64,000 nucleotides of DNA from an uncultured Actinomycetes bacterium (GTDB lineage Bacteria; Actinomycetota; Thermoleophilia; RBG-16-64-13): positions 1,887,602 through 1,951,601 of the forward strand of contig CAVZIK010000006.1 of assembly GCA_963775295.1 (NCBI GenBank), read 5' to 3'. The position numbers and the translations under genes are program-made. Below the pieces are notes generated by a model. The model ran no database searches, was not told where the DNA came from, and was given only the letters and a program-made list of their open reading frames with translations. How positions within the stretch are numbered: position 1 is the stretch's first letter; the number at the start of each line of letters is the position of its first letter. Shown piece by piece: positions 14,896-22,723 of the stretch.

Positions 14896-15816
14896 TCAGT
14901 CTTCGCCCCCCACCAGGAGCAGCGGCGTCACCTTCACCATGTGGATGATGCTCTCGGTCAAGCTGCCGAAGATGGTTCTATTGAGCCTGCTCTTTCCCCG
15001 GGTGGCCATGACGAGTAGCTGGGTTGGGTGGTCCTTGAGATAGTTGATGATGCTCTCAGCGGGCTCCCTCGAGGACAGGACCTCGGTCCGCACGTGGAGA
15101 CCGGAGGCCCTGATCGGCTCGGCGAGGGCCTCCAGATACGCCTTCATCTTTTCGCGTTGGGCGCCGAGATCGTCCACCACCGGCATCATGATTTCCGGGC
15201 CTTCCATCACGTGGAGCAGCACGAGTTCGCTGCCGCTCTCGGCGCCCCTCTGCTTGAGGATCTCCACGGCATGAGGAATTGCCGCTCCGGACTTCTCTGT
15301 GCCGCTGAGAGGGACCACCAGGGGCCGTTTGGGCAGCACGTCAGCCAGGACCTCCTCACGGAGCTCGATGGGCACCAGCCAGACCGGCACCTTTGAGGCG
15401 TGGACGACCTTGTTGGCCACCCCGCCGAGATCCCAGTCCTTCACCCCGGAGCTGCCGCGCGTCGACATCATAACCAAGTCGATGTTGTTCTCGTCGATGT
15501 ACTTGAGGATCTCCTCGGCGGGATAGCCCACCACGACATGTCCTCGCGCCAAAATGCACTGGGCGGTGGCGTCTCTGTCGTACTTGCTTCTGACGGCCTC
15601 AGCCCTGGCGCATAGTACCTCGGCCTTCTGCTCCATATACGCCCGGCGCATAGGCAGTTGGGCTTCCTGGTCGGGGCTGCACACGTGCAACAGATCTATG
15701 TCCACGTGCATTCTCCCGGAGACTTCTTGAGCATAATCGAAGACCACTTCGGCTAGCTCCGAGCCGTCCAGAAGAACCACCATCTTCTTGTACATGCTTG
15801 TACCTCCTCGGTGCAA
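14896..15816 (-). CDS. Universal stress protein with tandem UspA domains
   Basis: Two UspA-like halves (MYKKMVVLLDGSELAEVVFDYA…; …SELVLLHVMEGPE…ATRGKSRLNRTIFGS). Confidence 0.85.
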   Translation of the reverse strand: MHRGGTSMYKKMVVLLDGSELAEVVFDYAQEVSGRMHVDIDLLHVCSPDQEAQLPMRRAYMEQKAEVLCARAEAVRSKYDRDATAQCILARGHVVVGYPAEEILKYIDENNIDLVMMSTRGSSGVKDWDLGGVANKVVHASKVPVWLVPIELREEVLADVLPKRPLVVPLSGTEKSGAAIPHAVEILKQRGAESGSELVLLHVMEGPEIMMPVVDDLGAQREKMKAYLEALAEPIRASGLHVRTEVLSSREPAESIINYLKDHPTQLLVMATRGKSRLNRTIFGSLTESIIHMVKVTPLLLVGGED

Positions 15817-15956
15817 GGACTGTTGGAGATAACCATACCCCCGGCTCAGCGTAGTAGCAATGCGGAGAGACCCGTTCGGGTGCCCGAAGCAGCCAGCCGG
15901 GCAACCGTCCGTTGCGAGGGGTGATGACAGACGGGGTAAGCGAGACCGGGTAGAAG

Positions 15957-18900
15957 CTATCCCACCTTCTTCGGAATAGCCGTGGTCCCGGCTCCAGGCG
16001 CCCTGCGGGCGCGGCGCCGAGCCAGTACCACTTCCAGATCCAGCACCTCCTCGGCTACGATGGCCAACCCCCGTTTGTGGTTGTTCTGCAGCCTCCCCCT
16101 GACCAGGAAGTAACTCGCCCGAGCGACCACCGGCGCGATCTTGGCCAGCTTGCTCTCAAAGCAGACGCACTCGAAGAGGCCGTAGGCGTCCTCTAAGGTC
16201 AGAAACATCGTCCTTTTTCCCGAGCGCATCCAGGGATTCTGGGCCCGCTCGTAGACACCGGCCACAGATACCGGCACCTCGTCTCCCATAGCGGGGAGTT
16301 CGTAGCTCATGCGTACACCCATCGACCTCAACTCTTCCTCATAGAGCTCCAACGGGTGAGCGCTCACGGTGAGTCCCATGAGTTCGAGCTCGGAGCGGAC
16401 CTTGTCCTCGAGACTCCACTGGCGTTCCAGCCCGGCGCGGCTGGGCGGGGAAAAAAACGCCCGCAGTTGGCCGCGCCTCTGTCCGGACGACCCGGCCAGC
16501 GCCTCCAAACGATCGTGCAGAAGGGGTAGACGCCAGAGCAGTTCGGTGCGGTCGGGTTCCAGCGAGTCGAAGGCACCCACCCGGATGAGGTTCTCGGCCA
16601 CAGGGTAGTCGATGCGGGTACGGAGGTAGAAGTCCTCGAAGCTGGTGAAGGGGCCGTGGCGGCGCTCCTTCTCGATGCGGTCGAGGGAGCGCTCGCCCAT
16701 CTGCTTGAGGTAGGAGAAACCCACCCGTAGGGCCCGGCCGGCATCCGGGGCGATGCCGCAACTGGGTGCGAGGCAGGCTCCGGGCTCCACGCCGCCGCGG
16801 GCGCGGGGCGCGCGGGGGAGAAGAAGGTCGCCGGGAAGCAGCGGCGCTTCGCGCGGTGGCACGGGGGCGCCGGCCCATCTCTGCTCCGGCGCCGCTCGCA
16901 GGGCCTCGGCATAGGCCAGCTCGCCTTCCTGCTCGGCCCCCAACTCGGCCAGGTCGGACTCGGTGAGGCCCCAGTTGCGCTCGGCGTTCCAGACCTGGGC
17001 GAAGGGGTCGTAGGGGCCTGCGGCCCCACCGGTGTGTGTCGCCGTCTCATCGGCCTGCGCCTCACTACCAGGCAGGCCTCCCGCGGCTCCCGCTCCCAGC
17101 AGGCCCGGCTCACTCGAGACCTCCGGCGGCGTGTCGCCCTCCACCGTGAACCCGCGCCCCGACAGGTTGATGTCCATAGACCTCACCTCCAGACCAAAGC
17201 GGCGGGCGTCGTTCAGTACCGTCCGCGGGGTGTAGAAGCCCATGGGGTAGTTGTTCAGCACGGCGCACAGGAACTCGGCCGGGTAGTAGGCCTTGAGGTA
17301 GGCGGTGGCGTAGCTGATGACGGCGAAACACACCGAGTGGCTCTTGTTGAAGCCATAGGCGGCGAAGCCCTCCAGTTGGCGGAAGACCTCCCTGGCGGCG
17401 TTCTCCGGGACTCCCCGCTCGACGGCGCGGCTGATGAAGGTCTCGCCGATCTTGGCCATCTCCTCCCGGCTGCGGTCGCGGGTCATGGCCCGGCGAAGGG
17501 AGTCGGCGTCGGCCAGGTCGAACCCGGCCACCAGTTGCGCCACCCGCAGCACCTGCTCTTGGTAGAGGATGACGCCGTAGGTGTCGCCCAGGGCTTCGGC
17601 CATAGCGGGGTGGGGAAGGACGACAGGCTCGATGCCCCAGCGCCGGTCGATGAAGGGACCGATCATCTCGGCCTCCAGTGGACCGGGGCGGTAGAGGGCG
17701 ATGGCGGCGATGATGTCGTCGAAATCCCGCTCCTGCAGGCGGCTGGCCAGGTTGCGCTGCCCGGCGGATTCCAGTTGGAACAGCCCGATAGAACCTCCGT
17801 TGCTGATGATCTCGTACGCGGCGGGGTCGTCGGGCGGCAGCTCGTAGGGCCGGATCCGTCTCCCCGTCCGCTGCCTGATGATATGTACGCACTCCGACAC
17901 GGCGGAATGGGTCCTTAGTCCGAGGATGTCCATCTTGACCAGGCCCAGGGCGGCAACGTCGTCCTTGTTGAACTGCAGGACCACCACCCCTTTGGCCGCC
18001 CATTGGAGGGGCGCGTAAAAAGGGATCTCTCTATCGGCGATGACGAACCCCCCCAGGTGAGTTCCTAGGTGCATGGGGAACGAGTCCAACCGCTCCACCA
18101 AATCGAGGAAGCGCCCCCACCGGGACTCGTCCTGCAGCGGGGAATCCTTCAACTCGGGCCAAGCGCCGCCCAGGTACTCGCGCATGCGGGCGGCGTCGCC
18201 ATGCCGAGGGACGTGTTTGGCCAGGGCGTTGATCTCCGTGGGGGCGAACCCCAGGGCTTCGGCCACGACCCGCACCGCCGAACGCGGAGACATGGTGTTC
18301 ACGTTGGCAACCACGGCTACGTTCTCCGATCCGAAGGTCTTGTAGATGTGGTCTATCACCTCATCCCGTCGGGAAGAGCAGAAATCGACGTCGATGTCGG
18401 GCATCTCTCGACGGTTGGGATTGAGGAACCGCTCGAACAGCAGGTTGTGGCGGATGGGTTCCGACGCGGTGATGTCGAGCGCGTGACACACGATGGAGTT
18501 GCCGGCGCTGCCCCTCCCTGAGCAGGCGATCCCTTGGGTCCGCGCCCATCGGACGATGTCGTGCACCACCAAGAAATAATGGGCGAACTCCATCTGCTGG
18601 ATCATGCAGAGCTCCTTCTCCAGAAGCTCGACGGCTCGCGGCGGCACCGGCTTGTATTTGCGGGGGACGCCGCGAAAGCACCGCTTGGCGAGAAGTGAGT
18701 ACGCCGTCTCGCCGACAGGGACGTCGACCTTGGGAAAGTGGTAGGTGTCCAACTCCAAGTCGACGGTGCAGCGCTGGGCGATATGCCACGCAGCATCGAG
18801 GGGGGAAGGATCTGCTGATGCAGCCATACCCGGGTTGCGCTTCGCCGGGGCTCCAGAGCCAACGGTCACACGCGAGGTGAGTAACGTCCCGGAAAGTCCC

Positions 18901-20639
18901 GGACTAGGTGTCCTATCCTCGCCCCTGGATGATGCAATTGCTGTTGCATTATAGCCATTATGCAATACAGGAGGTCGACAGGCATCCGTGAAGGCCGACA
19001 CCACCTCCACCGCCCCCCGCACTCGGTCTCTCTCTCGCTCTCCTGGCAAACCCGATTCCCCCTCCAATAATGCAAGTTCTGTTGCAATGCAATAAGTATG
19101 CATACCAACAGCCTGGTCAACGGGTGTCACCAGAGAGAGCAAAGCCTCCGCCTCAAGCTTCAGTTGAACTTTAGACTTCAGACAACGTGCGCCAGGGACG
19201 ACGTCTGGGTAGCCGGAGAGTGGTTTATCGTGACCGGCGGCGCGGCATATCAGGTGGATGGCGCGATCGGATGCCCCAGCATAATGGGCATTACAAGTCA
19301 GTACGGTGGGCAGGCGGCACTCCGCGGCCAGGTGGGTGAGGTCGAGGCAGTAGGTGAGGCAAGAGAGGCGCCAGGGCCGACCGTCGTGGTGGAACCCTAC
19401 ATCATAGTCTGAGGGATTGAGACGCTGAGGTTGACCCTCGGGAAGGTCAGGACGACCGACGTGAGAACGGGGTTTGGGAGGACGGACTGGGACAAACGTC
19501 CGCGTTGACTCGGATATTGCTGCAGACTTTGTTGCAATGCAATGTGATTGCATTTGGGCAGATGGAGGTTCGGCTGGGCGAACACCGGCGCGGGTAGGCG
19601 CGGGGTCGGCGATCAGTGCCGGGGTTGCGGACGTTGCAGTGTGCTCCACCCCGATGGTGTCCGGGGCCGGCGTAGCCCGGTGCCGAAGTCGTCCGCCCTC
19701 TGCGCGGATCTTTTCGTAAACGGGAGACCCATACTGGCCGGCGTGAGCCTCTTGGTGGGGTTCGTACCCGAAATACTGTAGTTCGACGTAAAGGTGACCA
19801 GGGCCGAAGATATCGCGCAGGTGGAGGAGGACGGCGCCGGCATCCCGGGTGCGGCCGAGGTCTGTGAGGTAGCCCAACTCTCCGTGGCGGCATCCGGTGA
19901 GGCAGATGAGACCGTTGGCATGAACGCGCAACGAGTCCACGGTGACGGTGGGCGGATGCTCCCGTTCGGGATCGGCCAGGTGTGCGGCAGAGATGATGCG
20001 GCAAAGATTGGCATAGCCCTCTCGGGTTTCGGCGAGCAGGACAAGATGGTGCGGATCATGGGGGGAGACGCCGCTTGTTGCGGCAAGGGCGTCGGACGGC
20101 GAGGGTGAATGTTCGACCTGAGGGAGCAGCGAGTCCACCCGGACCTCGGCTCCGAAAATCGGCTTGATACCGCGCTTGCTGCAGGCCTTGGCGAAACGTA
20201 CCGCGCCGTAGAGGCCGTCGTGATCTGTAAGGGCCAAGGCCGGCTGTCCCAACTCGGCCGTGCGGGACACCAACTCTTCGATGCGGCTGCCGCCGTCGAG
20301 GAACGAGAAGTTGGAGTGGACGTGCAGGTGGACAAACGGGGAAGCGCCGGTCGCTGTGTCTGCGTCGAAATCGACGGCATCGCAGGTGACGGGCAACTCG
20401 TGCAGCTTGGGCGCCCGGGTGTAGCCGAACTTGTGGACGGCGCCGTGGGCGGTAGGTCCCGGTCCGCCGATCTGGGACTTGGGACCGGGATCCGCCGGCC
20501 CTTTGGCCCAGGCCTTTTTGGGGGCGGCGTTACCGAGTTGCCGCGCATAGTCCTGACTTGGCGGGATTCTTTGCACCGGGAACCGGCTCGACTGACTGTC
20601 GGAAGGACGGCCATCGTGTGCGGTATCGCTCGCTGTCAT
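15957..20639 (-). CDS. dnaE2: Error-prone DNA polymerase DnaE2 (ImuC-like Pol III alpha homologue) with three long low-complexity insertions
   Basis: PHP domain (HLHVHSNFSFLDGG…LALTDHDGLYG), polymerase core and a C-terminal OB fold. No tau-binding C-terminal extension. 1560 aa, against ~1050-1100 aa typical. Tandem LexA boxes lie upstream. Confidence 0.85.
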   Translation of the reverse strand: MTASDTAHDGRPSDSQSSRFPVQRIPPSQDYARQLGNAAPKKAWAKGPADPGPKSQIGGPGPTAHGAVHKFGYTRAPKLHELPVTCDAVDFDADTATGASPFVHLHVHSNFSFLDGGSRIEELVSRTAELGQPALALTDHDGLYGAVRFAKACSKRGIKPIFGAEVRVDSLLPQVEHSPSPSDALAATSGVSPHDPHHLVLLAETREGYANLCRIISAAHLADPEREHPPTVTVDSLRVHANGLICLTGCRHGELGYLTDLGRTRDAGAVLLHLRDIFGPGHLYVELQYFGYEPHQEAHAGQYGSPVYEKIRAEGGRLRHRATPAPDTIGVEHTATSATPALIADPAPTRAGVRPAEPPSAQMQSHCIATKSAAISESTRTFVPVRPPKPRSHVGRPDLPEGQPQRLNPSDYDVGFHHDGRPWRLSCLTYCLDLTHLAAECRLPTVLTCNAHYAGASDRAIHLICRAAGHDKPLSGYPDVVPGARCLKSKVQLKLEAEALLSLVTPVDQAVGMHTYCIATELALLEGESGLPGERERDRVRGAVEVVSAFTDACRPPVLHNGYNATAIASSRGEDRTPSPGLSGTLLTSRVTVGSGAPAKRNPGMAASADPSPLDAAWHIAQRCTVDLELDTYHFPKVDVPVGETAYSLLAKRCFRGVPRKYKPVPPRAVELLEKELCMIQQMEFAHYFLVVHDIVRWARTQGIACSGRGSAGNSIVCHALDITASEPIRHNLLFERFLNPNRREMPDIDVDFCSSRRDEVIDHIYKTFGSENVAVVANVNTMSPRSAVRVVAEALGFAPTEINALAKHVPRHGDAARMREYLGGAWPELKDSPLQDESRWGRFLDLVERLDSFPMHLGTHLGGFVIADREIPFYAPLQWAAKGVVVLQFNKDDVAALGLVKMDILGLRTHSAVSECVHIIRQRTGRRIRPYELPPDDPAAYEIISNGGSIGLFQLESAGQRNLASRLQERDFDDIIAAIALYRPGPLEAEMIGPFIDRRWGIEPVVLPHPAMAEALGDTYGVILYQEQVLRVAQLVAGFDLADADSLRRAMTRDRSREEMAKIGETFISRAVERGVPENAAREVFRQLEGFAAYGFNKSHSVCFAVISYATAYLKAYYPAEFLCAVLNNYPMGFYTPRTVLNDARRFGLEVRSMDINLSGRGFTVEGDTPPEVSSEPGLLGAGAAGGLPGSEAQADETATHTGGAAGPYDPFAQVWNAERNWGLTESDLAELGAEQEGELAYAEALRAAPEQRWAGAPVPPREAPLLPGDLLLPRAPRARGGVEPGACLAPSCGIAPDAGRALRVGFSYLKQMGERSLDRIEKERRHGPFTSFEDFYLRTRIDYPVAENLIRVGAFDSLEPDRTELLWRLPLLHDRLEALAGSSGQRRGQLRAFFSPPSRAGLERQWSLEDKVRSELELMGLTVSAHPLELYEEELRSMGVRMSYELPAMGDEVPVSVAGVYERAQNPWMRSGKRTMFLTLEDAYGLFECVCFESKLAKIAPVVARASYFLVRGRLQNNHKRGLAIVAEEVLDLEVVLARRRARRAPGAGTTAIPKKVG

Positions 20640-20701
20640 AGCAATGAACGTTGCATTATTAATAAGATGAAATTGAACCGGTCAAAATCTGGCTCGCTCT
20701 C

Positions 20702-20748
20702 TGAACGTATGTTCGTGGAGCACGGAGTATATACGAACAAATGTTCGG
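20702..20748. promoter_or_regulatory. Two Cheo-type LexA/SOS boxes (cTGAACgtatGTTCGt at 20702-20716; aCGAACaaatGTTCGg at 20734-20748). They lie upstream of dnaE2 and within the GGDEF-gene upstream region.
   Basis: Matches the Gram-positive / actinobacterial SOS-box consensus GAAC-N4-GTTC (TCGAAC-N4-GTTCGA). A sigma70-like TTGACC-N17-TTAATA lies just downstream on the minus strand. Confidence 0.6.
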
Positions 20749-20848
20749 ATGACAAGAGCGGTTTTTCGAGGGAAAACGGGGTCGCGACTACTATCGTTTT
20801 GGTTCGGGTAGAAACAAGATCGCAAGAGTCAAATGGTGGGGGTTGAAA

Positions 20849-22723
20849 ATGACCCAAGCACCCTCGGGCCGGTCCATGGCCAACGACGAACGCACGATGT
20901 TCAAAGTGCGGATTCCTCCCGACCTGTCTCGCGTGCGGGACGCACGTCTGCTCATGGAGCAGGTGGCCTCGTTGACCGACATCGACACTCGGCGTCTCTT
21001 CGATCTGCAGGTGGTCGTATCTGAGGCATGCGTGAATGCGATCGAGCACGCGGGCACGGAGGTGGATGTGGTCGCCTGGGTTCTCTCGGATCGAATCGTG
21101 ATCGAGATCTCTAGCGAGAGTTCTTTTCAAACGCGGGTCTTCTCGGACGATCACTCTCAGCGAGCCGGGGTTGGACTGCCTCTGATGGCGGCTCTGGCCG
21201 ATCAAGTCCAGGTATCGCGCTTGAGCGGCGCGCTTACCCGAGTGTCACTTACCTTCCTGCTCGAGCCCGAGATCGAGGGCGACCGTGTCTCGGTCGAGGA
21301 GAGTCCGTCCCAGCCCCCGAGGAGATGTGAGCTTTTGGAGGACCCCCACGTGCATGCCGTGGTCCTGACCCCGGGCGAGATAAGGGAGAAGAATCGCTTG
21401 GAGCGGGAACTGACCCGACGGGCTTTCCACGATCCACTCACCGGACTTGCCAACCGCGGGTACCTCTTCGAGCGGGGCGAGGAAGTGCTGCGCGGAATCG
21501 GGCAAGGGGGTCGTTCGGTGGCGGTCCTTCTGCTCGATGTAGACCGCTTCAAGGAGGTGAACGATACCCTGGGCCACGAGGCCGGCGATCGGTTGCTGGC
21601 GACTGTTGGCGCGCGTTTGCGGAGTCTGCTCAGGCCGAAGGATATAGCGGCCAGGTTGGGTGGAGATGAATTCGTCCTCCTTATCGAGGACGGTACCAAG
21701 ACTTTGGAGGTCGGGAGACTTGCCGAACGGATTCTCAGCCGTCTTCGCGAACCTTATGACCTATCACCCGGCGAACTGCGGGCCACGTTCTCCATGGGCG
21801 TCGCCGTCTCGGGTTCTTCGTCATCCACGCTTTCCGAGTTGCTTCGCGAGGCCGACATCGCTCTCTACAGCGTGAAGTCCGAGCGGAGGGACGGCTGGAA
21901 GCTCTTTGAGACCGGAATGTTGGAGGCCGAACGGGCCAAGAGAGAGTCGGAAGGGGAGTTGCGGCGCGCTCTGGAATCGGACGCGATTGTCACGCATTTC
22001 CAGCCGGTTCTGTCGACCGACTATGGCACGATTGTGGGTTTCGAGGCTCTGGTGCGCTGGAACAAACCCGAGGGTCGCCAGTTGCTGCCAGAGAACTTCC
22101 TCGGCCTTGCGGAGGAATCGGGGCTGATCGTGCCGCTTGGCTACGAACTGCTCGAGCGGTCCTGCATCCATCTTCGCGACTGGGATGCCCGCCATCCACG
22201 GGACGGCCTCAAGCTGATGGTGAACCTTTCGTCGCGTCAACTGAGAGAGCGGGACTTGGTCGATAGGGTGGAAGCTGCGTTGACCGCGGCTGGCGTCAGT
22301 CCCGATAGACTGGTGCTCGAGATCGTCGAGGACGTTCTGGCGGACGGCAGTCTCGGGGCACTGGAGAATGTCGACGCGCTCAGGACTCGCGGAGTGAAAG
22401 TGGCCCTGGACGATTTTGGGACGGGGAGTTCGTCGATAACGGGTCTCAAGGAGTACCCCATCGACATTCTCAAACTCGCTCCTCACTTAGTGGAGGCCGC
22501 TGTCGCTACGGAAGAAGGGGCTTTGCTGGTCGCCGCGGTCGTGGGTCTGGCCGGATCTGCCGGTCTGCAGGTCGTTGGGGAGGGGGTGGAGAAGAGCGCG
22601 CAATTGGAAAAACTCAGACTTCTTGGATGTGAGATGTGGCAGGGCAGATATTTCTCCCCGCCTGTCCCTCCGGCCGAAGTTCCAGGCCTGCTTCAGCAGT
22701 CGGTTCGTGGGCACAACTGGTGA
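20849..22723 (+). CDS. Signalling protein: an N-terminal RsbW-like HATPase (anti-sigma-factor kinase-like) domain fused to GGDEF and EAL domains
   Basis: EACVNAIEHAG…VIEISSES is an HATPase_c_2-like motif. RLGGDEF is the GGDEF motif. EALVRW plus DDFGTG is the EAL motif. A GGTGGGGG RBS precedes the ATG at 20849, with an alternative TTG at 20843. Confidence 0.85.
   Translation: MTQAPSGRSMANDERTMFKVRIPPDLSRVRDARLLMEQVASLTDIDTRRLFDLQVVVSEACVNAIEHAGTEVDVVAWVLSDRIVIEISSESSFQTRVFSDDHSQRAGVGLPLMAALADQVQVSRLSGALTRVSLTFLLEPEIEGDRVSVEESPSQPPRRCELLEDPHVHAVVLTPGEIREKNRLERELTRRAFHDPLTGLANRGYLFERGEEVLRGIGQGGRSVAVLLLDVDRFKEVNDTLGHEAGDRLLATVGARLRSLLRPKDIAARLGGDEFVLLIEDGTKTLEVGRLAERILSRLREPYDLSPGELRATFSMGVAVSGSSSSTLSELLREADIALYSVKSERRDGWKLFETGMLEAERAKRESEGELRRALESDAIVTHFQPVLSTDYGTIVGFEALVRWNKPEGRQLLPENFLGLAEESGLIVPLGYELLERSCIHLRDWDARHPRDGLKLMVNLSSRQLRERDLVDRVEAALTAAGVSPDRLVLEIVEDVLADGSLGALENVDALRTRGVKVALDDFGTGSSSITGLKEYPIDILKLAPHLVEAAVATEEGALLVAAVVGLAGSAGLQVVGEGVEKSAQLEKLRLLGCEMWQGRYFSPPVPPAEVPGLLQQSVRGHNW

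Follow-up and report, generated by a model that had tools for sequence, protein, structure and literature searches.

A multi-copy TGCA-box motif in the leader and the translated linkers of a dnaE2-like polymerase gene of Thermoleophilia is probably a conserved control element

We describe a repeated motif, here called the TGCA box, in a 64,000-nucleotide stretch of DNA (the window) from an uncultured Actinomycetes bacterium of the Thermoleophilia (contig CAVZIK010000006.1, positions 1,887,602 to 1,951,601). It is hosted by an open reading frame (ORF) for a dnaE2-like C-family DNA polymerase alpha subunit (15957..20639, minus strand) and its leader. In the corresponding genes of related bacteria the motif occupies orthologous positions, it is constrained at the nucleotide level and it is nearly restricted to this one gene. 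Very probably, it represents a conserved cis-acting nucleic-acid element that is near-specific to the dnaE2 of this clade, with copies in the leader and in linkers that are translated and disordered. This agrees with the earlier note on this DNA, which was made from the sequence alone and had suggested conserved DNA-level elements in lineage-specific disordered translated insertions, sharing a motif with the leader.

All four copies in the window conform to the pattern TGCAT-N11-TGCAAC-N5-TTGCA with an optional extra TTGCA, spanning about 35 nt, and a weight matrix refined on all instances yields the consensus nnnnTGCATnnnnnTTnnAnTGCAACnnnnnTTGCAnnnn. Of the boxes, 1, 3 and 4 are strong, whereas box 2 (TTGCA) can be absent. 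Boxes 3 and 4 together form a 5-6-5 inverted repeat with the dyad TGCAA-N6-TTGCA, whose half-site centres lie about 11 bp apart, and the box spacing is constant in more than 100 instances. The AT-rich patches that had drawn attention to the gene lie at 18931-18970, 19066-19106, 19515-19556 and 20640-20670, as the earlier note said, and have GC contents of 0.375, 0.341, 0.381 and 0.29, respectively. The length of 1560 amino acids given for the polymerase was likewise correct, while the GC content of its ORF is 64.7% and not about 68%. Repeat alignment brings three 33-nt units (18933-65, 19071-103 and 19521-53) into register, which are 70-76% identical and spaced by 138 and 450 nt, each divisible by 3, and adds a fourth, partial 19-nt copy at 20641-59. 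The claim that the copies share a coding-strand motif thus stands in the sense that one motif fits all four, but the exact 14-mer ATTGCATTGCAACA occurs only twice in the window, both times in internal copies, and the third internal copy reads ATAATGCAACAGCA in its place. When up to two mismatches are allowed, 0.22 occurrences of ATTGCATTGCAACA are expected in the window and one of 100 shuffles reaches two. The heptamer TTGCATT is also enriched, with six of its nine sites in the window falling into the dnaE2 gene. With a position weight matrix (PWM) of 40 columns built from orthologues, the 64 kb give four matches above 16 bits; each is located in dnaE2 on its coding strand, and the remaining 59 kb are free of them.

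The copy in the leader (20636..20675, minus strand) consists of boxes 1, 3 and 4, scores 36.5 bits with PWM2, and its last box abuts the ATG at 20639-20637. The three internal copies, also on the minus strand and all in codon phase 0, reside in two inserts of the PHP region. Insert 1 (19458..19676, about residues 322-394) contains the site A copy at 19517..19556, which encodes ..QMQSHCIATKSAA.. (PWM 43.1 and 32.3 bits) and corresponds to columns 130-140 of the orthologue alignment. Insert 2 (18807..19127, about residues 505-611) contains the site B copy at 18929..18968, encoding ..VLHNGYNATAIAS.. (PWM 37.7 and 48.8 bits) and equivalent to alignment columns 355-365. An extra copy at the start of insert 2 (19067..19106, encoding ..GMHTYCIATELAL..; PWM 54.2 and 48.5 bits) precedes the orthologous insert-2 copy by 138 nt on the coding strand and is lineage-specific, most orthologues having no counterpart.

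A genome scan provided 47 loci with a long-form dnaE2 (L001-L047), whose proteins are only 59-92% identical, and 22 outgroup loci. A search for TTGCAWTGCAA showed that many orthologues carry the extended motif on their coding strand, whereas the outgroup loci gave none. The same three places, that is the leader with the start codon, PHP insert 1 and PHP insert 2, are occupied in nearly all 47 loci. On the coding strand, 111 matches above 25 bits are found in 217 kb of gene plus leader, compared with three in 293 kb of flanking DNA, so that the motif is about 50-fold rarer in the flanks and its density outside the gene amounts to about 0.01 per kb. At least two such matches are present in 36 of the 47 loci. 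Most orthologues with the inserts thus have the motif as well, contrary to the case that the earlier note had named as speaking against its proposal. No match above 10 bits exists in 196 kb of outgroup dnaE2 loci, nor in three sister loci that lack the inserts (proteins of 1213-1356 amino acids). In the long open frames of intact orthologues, counted from stop to stop and hence including the leader copies, 57 of 57 coding-strand matches are in codon phase 0. Extra in-frame copies also occur in six loci (L001, L003, L014, L033, L035 and L038), and in three others (L016, L025 and L042) the internal copies are kept and the leader copy is absent.

The host protein carries the Pfam domains PHP, DNA_pol3_alpha, finger, HHH_6 and OB. 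Its designation as DnaE2 is tentative. The domain architecture is of the DnaE2 type and LexA boxes are present at the gene, but hidden Markov models do not tell DnaE2 from DnaE in this case: the NCBIfam scores of 811 bits for DnaE (cut-off 1002) and 807 bits for error-prone DnaE2 (cut-off 939) both lie below their cut-offs. The nearest relatives are polymerases of 1400-1750 amino acids from metagenome-assembled genomes (MAGs) of Thermoleophilia/Gaiellales; remoter relatives comprise about 1050-1350 residues and are named error-prone polymerase by JGI. An alignment of 27 intact orthologues from the LYVELQ to the HFP motif, a stretch of 200-378 residues, shows two hypervariable inserts flanking a conserved PHP segment with an invariant HY motif. 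The GC content of third codon positions drops to 0.37-0.6 in the inserts vs 0.8-0.95 in the polymerase core, and the predicted local distance difference test score (pLDDT) of AlphaFold2 is below 50 over both inserts, with a confident PHP core. The linkers around the motif islands are predicted to be disordered. As had been noted for the window, the frame stays open through the copies, and the ORF runs through the inserts in 29 loci. The broken dnaE2 ORFs stem mostly from long-read MAGs, with erroneous indels in the assemblies as the probable cause. Among these, the ORFs of loci L033-L045 (MFD long-read MAG contigs) are split by frameshifts and give protein matches of 73-92% identity in the best aligned segment with near-full query coverage; they are likely products of assembly indels and not pseudogenes. 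In L025 (6250-9450), the dnaE2 frame is broken by about 3 kb with two opposite-strand genes, one DUF5050-like and one for a putative amidase, which indicates either a disrupted gene or a misassembly.

Two further peculiarities of the polymerase were observed. A lineage-specific low-complexity insertion with a GC content of 0.75-0.82 is present in its C-terminal half (window 16700-17150, about residues 1165-1300), and an N-terminal extension of about 95 residues (RFPVQRIPPS..HKFGYTR) is also conserved in the clade. The TGCA motif is absent from both. An intein was considered for the inserts and dismissed: Pfam shows neither a Hint nor a LAGLIDADG domain, the peptide 'VLHN' is followed by Gly, and the conserved PHP strand with the invariant HY motif falls between the 'CIAT' and 'HN' peptides.

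Since the internal copies are translated in one constant reading frame and Ala-Thr..Ile/Val-Ala is seen repeatedly in the alignments, they might represent a functional peptide motif (..LH..C[IN]AT.IA..) of the polymerase, with the odd codons being incidental. Such a motif would conserve residues and let synonymous sites drift; the opposite is observed. The residues encoded at island codons 5, 6 and 9 are highly variable, with Asn (13), Ile (9), Ser (9), Asp (3) and Thr (3) at the central codon 6. Codon choice, on the other hand, is nearly fixed on rare A/T-ending synonyms. GCA is used for 42 of 42 first and 38 of 42 second alanines (8.6% gene-wide), ATT for 22 of 22 isoleucines (7.8%), GTT for 13 of 13 valines (6.1%) and CAT for 29 of 32 histidines (26%). 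Note that these shares are partly circular, as the instances were picked by the matrix itself. An independent check is provided by the protein-based alignment, in which A or T occupies the third positions of the islands at 0.88-1.00, including those with an amino-acid identity of no more than 0.27-0.5. For comparison, the commonest third base at the 277 conserved four-fold sites outside the islands reaches 0.71 on average, and in 264 of these columns it is C or G. Because the residues vary while rare A/T-ending codons are fixed, the constraint acts on the nucleic acid and not on the peptide, and the untranslated copy in the leader completes the case. In addition, the islands sit in segments with a pLDDT below 50. 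The peptide explanation, which the earlier note had also considered, is hardly credible on this evidence. The linker sequence has been wholly turned over and the island positions have been kept, which points to purifying selection on the islands.

A second explanation holds that the copies are remnants, without host function, left by a small palindromic mobile element after in-frame insertion, comparable to a miniature inverted-repeat transposable element or to Rickettsia palindromic elements. The latter are mentioned as in-frame selfish repeats in protein genes (PMC1779305). They resemble the TGCA element in being palindromic, in frame and translated in loops of otherwise conserved proteins, and the islands studied here are indeed quasi-palindromic, AT-rich and in-frame translated in protein surface loops. 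In-frame translated placement holds for every copy within an ORF, some species have extra local copies, and a few more copies are intergenic, 0.7-3.2 kb upstream of dnaE2: one in L011 (628-667) between convergent genes for a PadR and a radical-SAM protein, one in L042 (3197-3236) between a gene for a DUF6777 zinc-ribbon protein and hicB, and one in L047 (1362-1401) upstream of a DUF6777 zinc-ribbon gene like that beside the L042 copy. Yet Rickettsia palindromic elements are about 100-150 bp long, reside in many unrelated genes and vary in presence and absence, whereas the TGCA element measures 33-40 nt without longer common flanks and is found in one gene at clade-wide positions. Presence/absence polymorphism between orthologues was not seen, as nearly all 47 species have the same three positions filled despite their protein divergence and the complete turnover of the linkers. 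Scarcity outside the gene is a further objection, as the 64-kb window holds no other copies and strict-pattern scans of metagenomes and viruses gave only chance-like low-GC matches. The mobile footprint that had been proposed is thus very unlikely.

The individual results of these scans are as follows. The strict four-box pattern produced 20 matches in metagenome contigs, none of them in relatives of dnaE2; 16 were low-GC and chance-like, and the high-GC matches were due to an unrelated tandem (TTGCATTGCAAC)n. This tandem is intergenic in L080 (5440-5490) and L077 (32-64), two contigs with a GC content of 0.66 and no relation to dnaE2, which carry genes for an ECF sigma factor and a Ser/Thr kinase and are probably planctomycete-like. 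The three-box pattern produced 100 matches in viral contigs, nearly all of them low-GC. In two viral contigs with a GC content of 0.70-0.71 (L107 and L118), TTGCAT-N17-TATAGT-N7-ATG, a leaderless-type promoter, precedes a small ORF (MRFTRSADKHGVSH..), and the -10 element is embedded in a perfect TGCAAC-TATA-GTTGCA palindrome. The latter could be an actinophage operator of a like sequence type.

The viral arrangement also bears on a third explanation, according to which the islands are intragenic sense or antisense promoters whose transcripts modulate dnaE2, since it combines TTGCAT-N17-TATAGT-N7-ATG with the same TGCAAC/GTTGCA palindrome in high-GC DNA. Box 1 (TTGCAT) is similar to a -35 hexamer, and TATAAT is present in the copy at 18929-68, as had been pointed out earlier. 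However, a consensus sigma-70 scan detected no sense promoter at any of the copies; its output comprised the LexA-overlapped promoter upstream of the gene and one antisense site. The latter (CTGGCA-17-AATAAT, 19043-19071, plus strand) adjoins the 19067-19106 copy. Neither TATAAT nor this antisense site is conserved in orthologues, and columns 26-31, the would-be -10 element, are the least conserved of the motif, with A2 and T6 not kept. Internal promoters are therefore highly improbable, and together with the mobile-element and peptide readings they must be regarded as weak.

Two modes of action remain to be weighed, one on double-stranded DNA and one in the mRNA. A consensus scan places the promoter of dnaE2 at 20702..20755 (minus strand), with -35 TTGTCA, an 18-nt spacer and -10 TATACT (20755-20726), and a box search identified two LexA-type boxes on the same strand that overlap this SOS promoter, CGAACATTTGTTCG at 20734-47 and CGAACATACGTTCA at 20702-15. 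They are the only convincing LexA-type boxes in the 64 kb, and no other gene in the window has one. The TGCA box itself was considered as an SOS box and rejected, because its copies do not match CGAAC-N4-GTTCG and the only matches in the region are those at 20702-15 and 20734-47. The divergent neighbour (20843-22723) encodes a HATPase_c_2-GGDEF-EAL protein. In most orthologues the order is -35 TTGTCA, LexA box 1, -10 TATACT, LexA box 2, about 25-70 variable nt, the motif and the ATG. In most leaders, about 40 nt separate LexA box 2 from the motif. The distance between motif and ATG is fixed, whereas the length of the leader upstream of the motif varies. The earlier note had placed a copy between the LexA boxes and the start codon. 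This copy is real, but it directly adjoins the ATG and contains a mini-ORF of six codons, ATG CAA CGT TCA TTG CTA TGA (MQRSLL; 20636..20656, minus strand), which starts in box 3 and ends on the start codon of dnaE2, its TGA overlapping the ATG as ATGA.

The rival explanation at the mRNA level starts from this arrangement. It takes the leader copy as an initiation region without a Shine-Dalgarno sequence that is coupled to the MQRxLQ mini-ORF, and the internal copies as binding sites of the same RNA-binding factor. This factor may possibly be DnaE2 itself, by analogy with gp43 of phage T4. Alternatively, the internal copies would pair with the self-complementary leader copy and so hide the start codon or form a target for a nuclease. 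Several observations are in favour. No Shine-Dalgarno sequence was found before the ATG of dnaE2, and GGAGG-type sites are present in the motif-less sister genes and in L020, where the start has moved. The constant distance to the ATG despite a variable upstream leader fits as well, and so does the second codon of dnaE2, which always begins with A whatever amino acid it encodes. Of 35 leaders, 27 retain the NTGA overlap of stop and start; five of these have a spacing of 11-13 codons (L015, L020, L024, L026 and L029), and in 17 of the 27 the NTG codon at this position opens a long intact ORF. The mini-ORF uses rare codons up to the stop that overlaps in ATGA. Furthermore, every copy is on the coding strand, each of the three copies outside dnaE2 is sense-oriented relative to a gene next to it, and predicted duplexes between leader and internal copies average about -23 kcal/mol vs -16 kcal/mol for shuffled partners.

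Other results speak against a role in the mRNA. Over 15500-21500, no relevant Rfam match was obtained at E values up to 10, and RNAalifold on 27 leaders predicted no structure beyond the LexA palindrome. The four copies in the window fold differently, with z-scores of -2.6 to +0.4 that are mostly no better than those of shuffles. No covariation was detected at columns 25/30, which would close a potential hairpin of boxes 3 and 4, in a test whose power is low owing to the near-invariance of the stems. TGAAAC is present in four leaders and has no compensating change there, contrary to pairing. Co-evolving long-range pairing of leader and internal copies within genomes was rejected, since duplexes within a genome are no better than those across genomes (p = 0.47). 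The internal copies lack the regularity of upstream ORFs (uORFs), their +1-frame ORFs measuring 2-224 codons with NTGA at chance level, and the three loci with internal copies and no leader copy fit the mRNA explanation poorly. In six leaders the mini-ORF starts with CTG instead of ATG; the mini-ORF therefore stays a lead and is not a proof. On balance, we consider action in the mRNA rather unlikely. It nevertheless stays a strong rival, because the Shine-Dalgarno sequence is absent, the mini-ORF is coupled and the distance to the ATG is fixed.

That a protein binds the element, that DNA is its target and that repression is the effect is our inference. Dimeric helix-turn-helix regulators usually bind operators with half-sites about 11 bp apart. 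Binding of a protein to DNA is favoured because the box spacing is fixed, the half-sites of the dyad have this distance and RNA structure is unsupported. We tentatively propose, with a probability somewhat short of even, that the copies form a candidate operator cluster at which a protein would act on double-stranded DNA and add to the control by LexA. The copies would be bound by a sequence-specific factor, probably dimeric or tetrameric, and the phased sites, located between about +60 and +1750 relative to the LexA-controlled promoter, would serve as a second brake on the error-prone polymerase. The favoured mode would be that of double-stranded DNA operators working by roadblock and/or looping, and the hypervariable linkers may be tolerated because they host the element. 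The regulator-binding sites that the earlier note listed among its suggestions thus provide the best remaining explanation, although the binding is putative only.

A number of points weigh against an operator cluster. The proposed factor would serve essentially one locus, something that transcription factors rarely do. The leader copy is fixed at the ATG without a Shine-Dalgarno sequence, and the mini-ORF stop overlaps the start even where the spacing has changed; these features point to a role in translation or at the RNA level for at least the leader copy. The orientation is always that of the coding strand, as predicted for a function in RNA, though vertical descent would explain this too. 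Of the three copies outside the gene, two are flanked by convergent genes, an unexpected place for promoter operators, and operators 1.1-1.7 kb inside a gene are uncommon. In principle, the specificity of the motif for one gene also allows the conclusion that its reader is the product or the transcript of that gene. The coding sequence would then hold an autoregulatory circuit in which the extensions particular to the clade let DnaE2 bind the gene or mRNA that encodes it, or in which the internal copies pair with the copy at the start codon, while the mini-uORF replaces the Shine-Dalgarno sequence. The dnaE2 of this clade would have evolved translated spacers whose sole selected content is a regulatory nucleic-acid motif. 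We regard such a circuit as improbable.

Elements with some of these properties are known. Lac O2 in lacZ and gal OI in galE are short dyad sites that occur close to the promoter and inside the regulated ORF, as is the case here, and like these auxiliary operators the TGCA boxes are conserved at the nucleotide level in translated sequence and presumed to act jointly. They differ from the lac and gal operators in comprising three to five sites that extend up to about 1.7 kb into the gene and reside in dedicated hypervariable linkers, in the single orientation and codon phase of the boxes, in a leader site that touches the start codon and in having no known repressor. SOS control by LexA (Cheo-type) concerns the same gene and follows the same logic of restraining an error-prone polymerase. 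Boxes 3 and 4 have the core AAC-N4-(G/A)TT in common with the LexA box, and the GAAC-N4-GTTC boxes overlap the promoter; the TGCA motif, by contrast, reads GCAAC..RTTGC and not CGAAC..GTTCG, has extra boxes and is located in the leader and the ORF instead of the promoter.

The operator of the T4 DNA polymerase gp43 and coupled uORFs are reminiscent of the arrangement at the start codon: in gp43 a short specific element sits at the start codon of a polymerase gene, and an ATGA overlap of stop and start is typical of translational coupling. Unlike the gp43 operator, the TGCA element has neither a stable hairpin nor covariation and has more copies deep in the ORF, and self-binding of DnaE2 by this likeness is pure conjecture. 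The parS sites are 16-bp palindromes that are likewise conserved as DNA within coding sequence. However, they are origin-proximal, occur in several genes and have another sequence, whereas one gene contains the whole cluster of TGCA copies. Operators in coding regions and palindromic elements in frame are thus already known kinds. The TGCA box differs from them in its combination of features, being gene-specific, multi-copy, phase-locked and placed in hypervariable linkers with an additional copy at the start codon. It matched no Rfam family, the literature library searched contained no paper on it, and it is probably a so far undescribed element that controls a mutagenic polymerase.

Mutagenesis in response to damage is driven by polymerases of the DnaE2 type, and in Actinobacteria this includes the evolution of drug resistance; the known control of these enzymes is exerted by LexA. 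If there is a second control element with such deep conservation, a new regulator or a translational mechanism for mutagenesis would be indicated. The gene also offers a clean natural case of selection at the nucleotide level that overrides codon usage in a protein-coding gene. Hypervariable protein linkers appear to act here as carriers of regulatory sequence, and such regions would be missed or misread by annotation pipelines and by dN/dS analyses.

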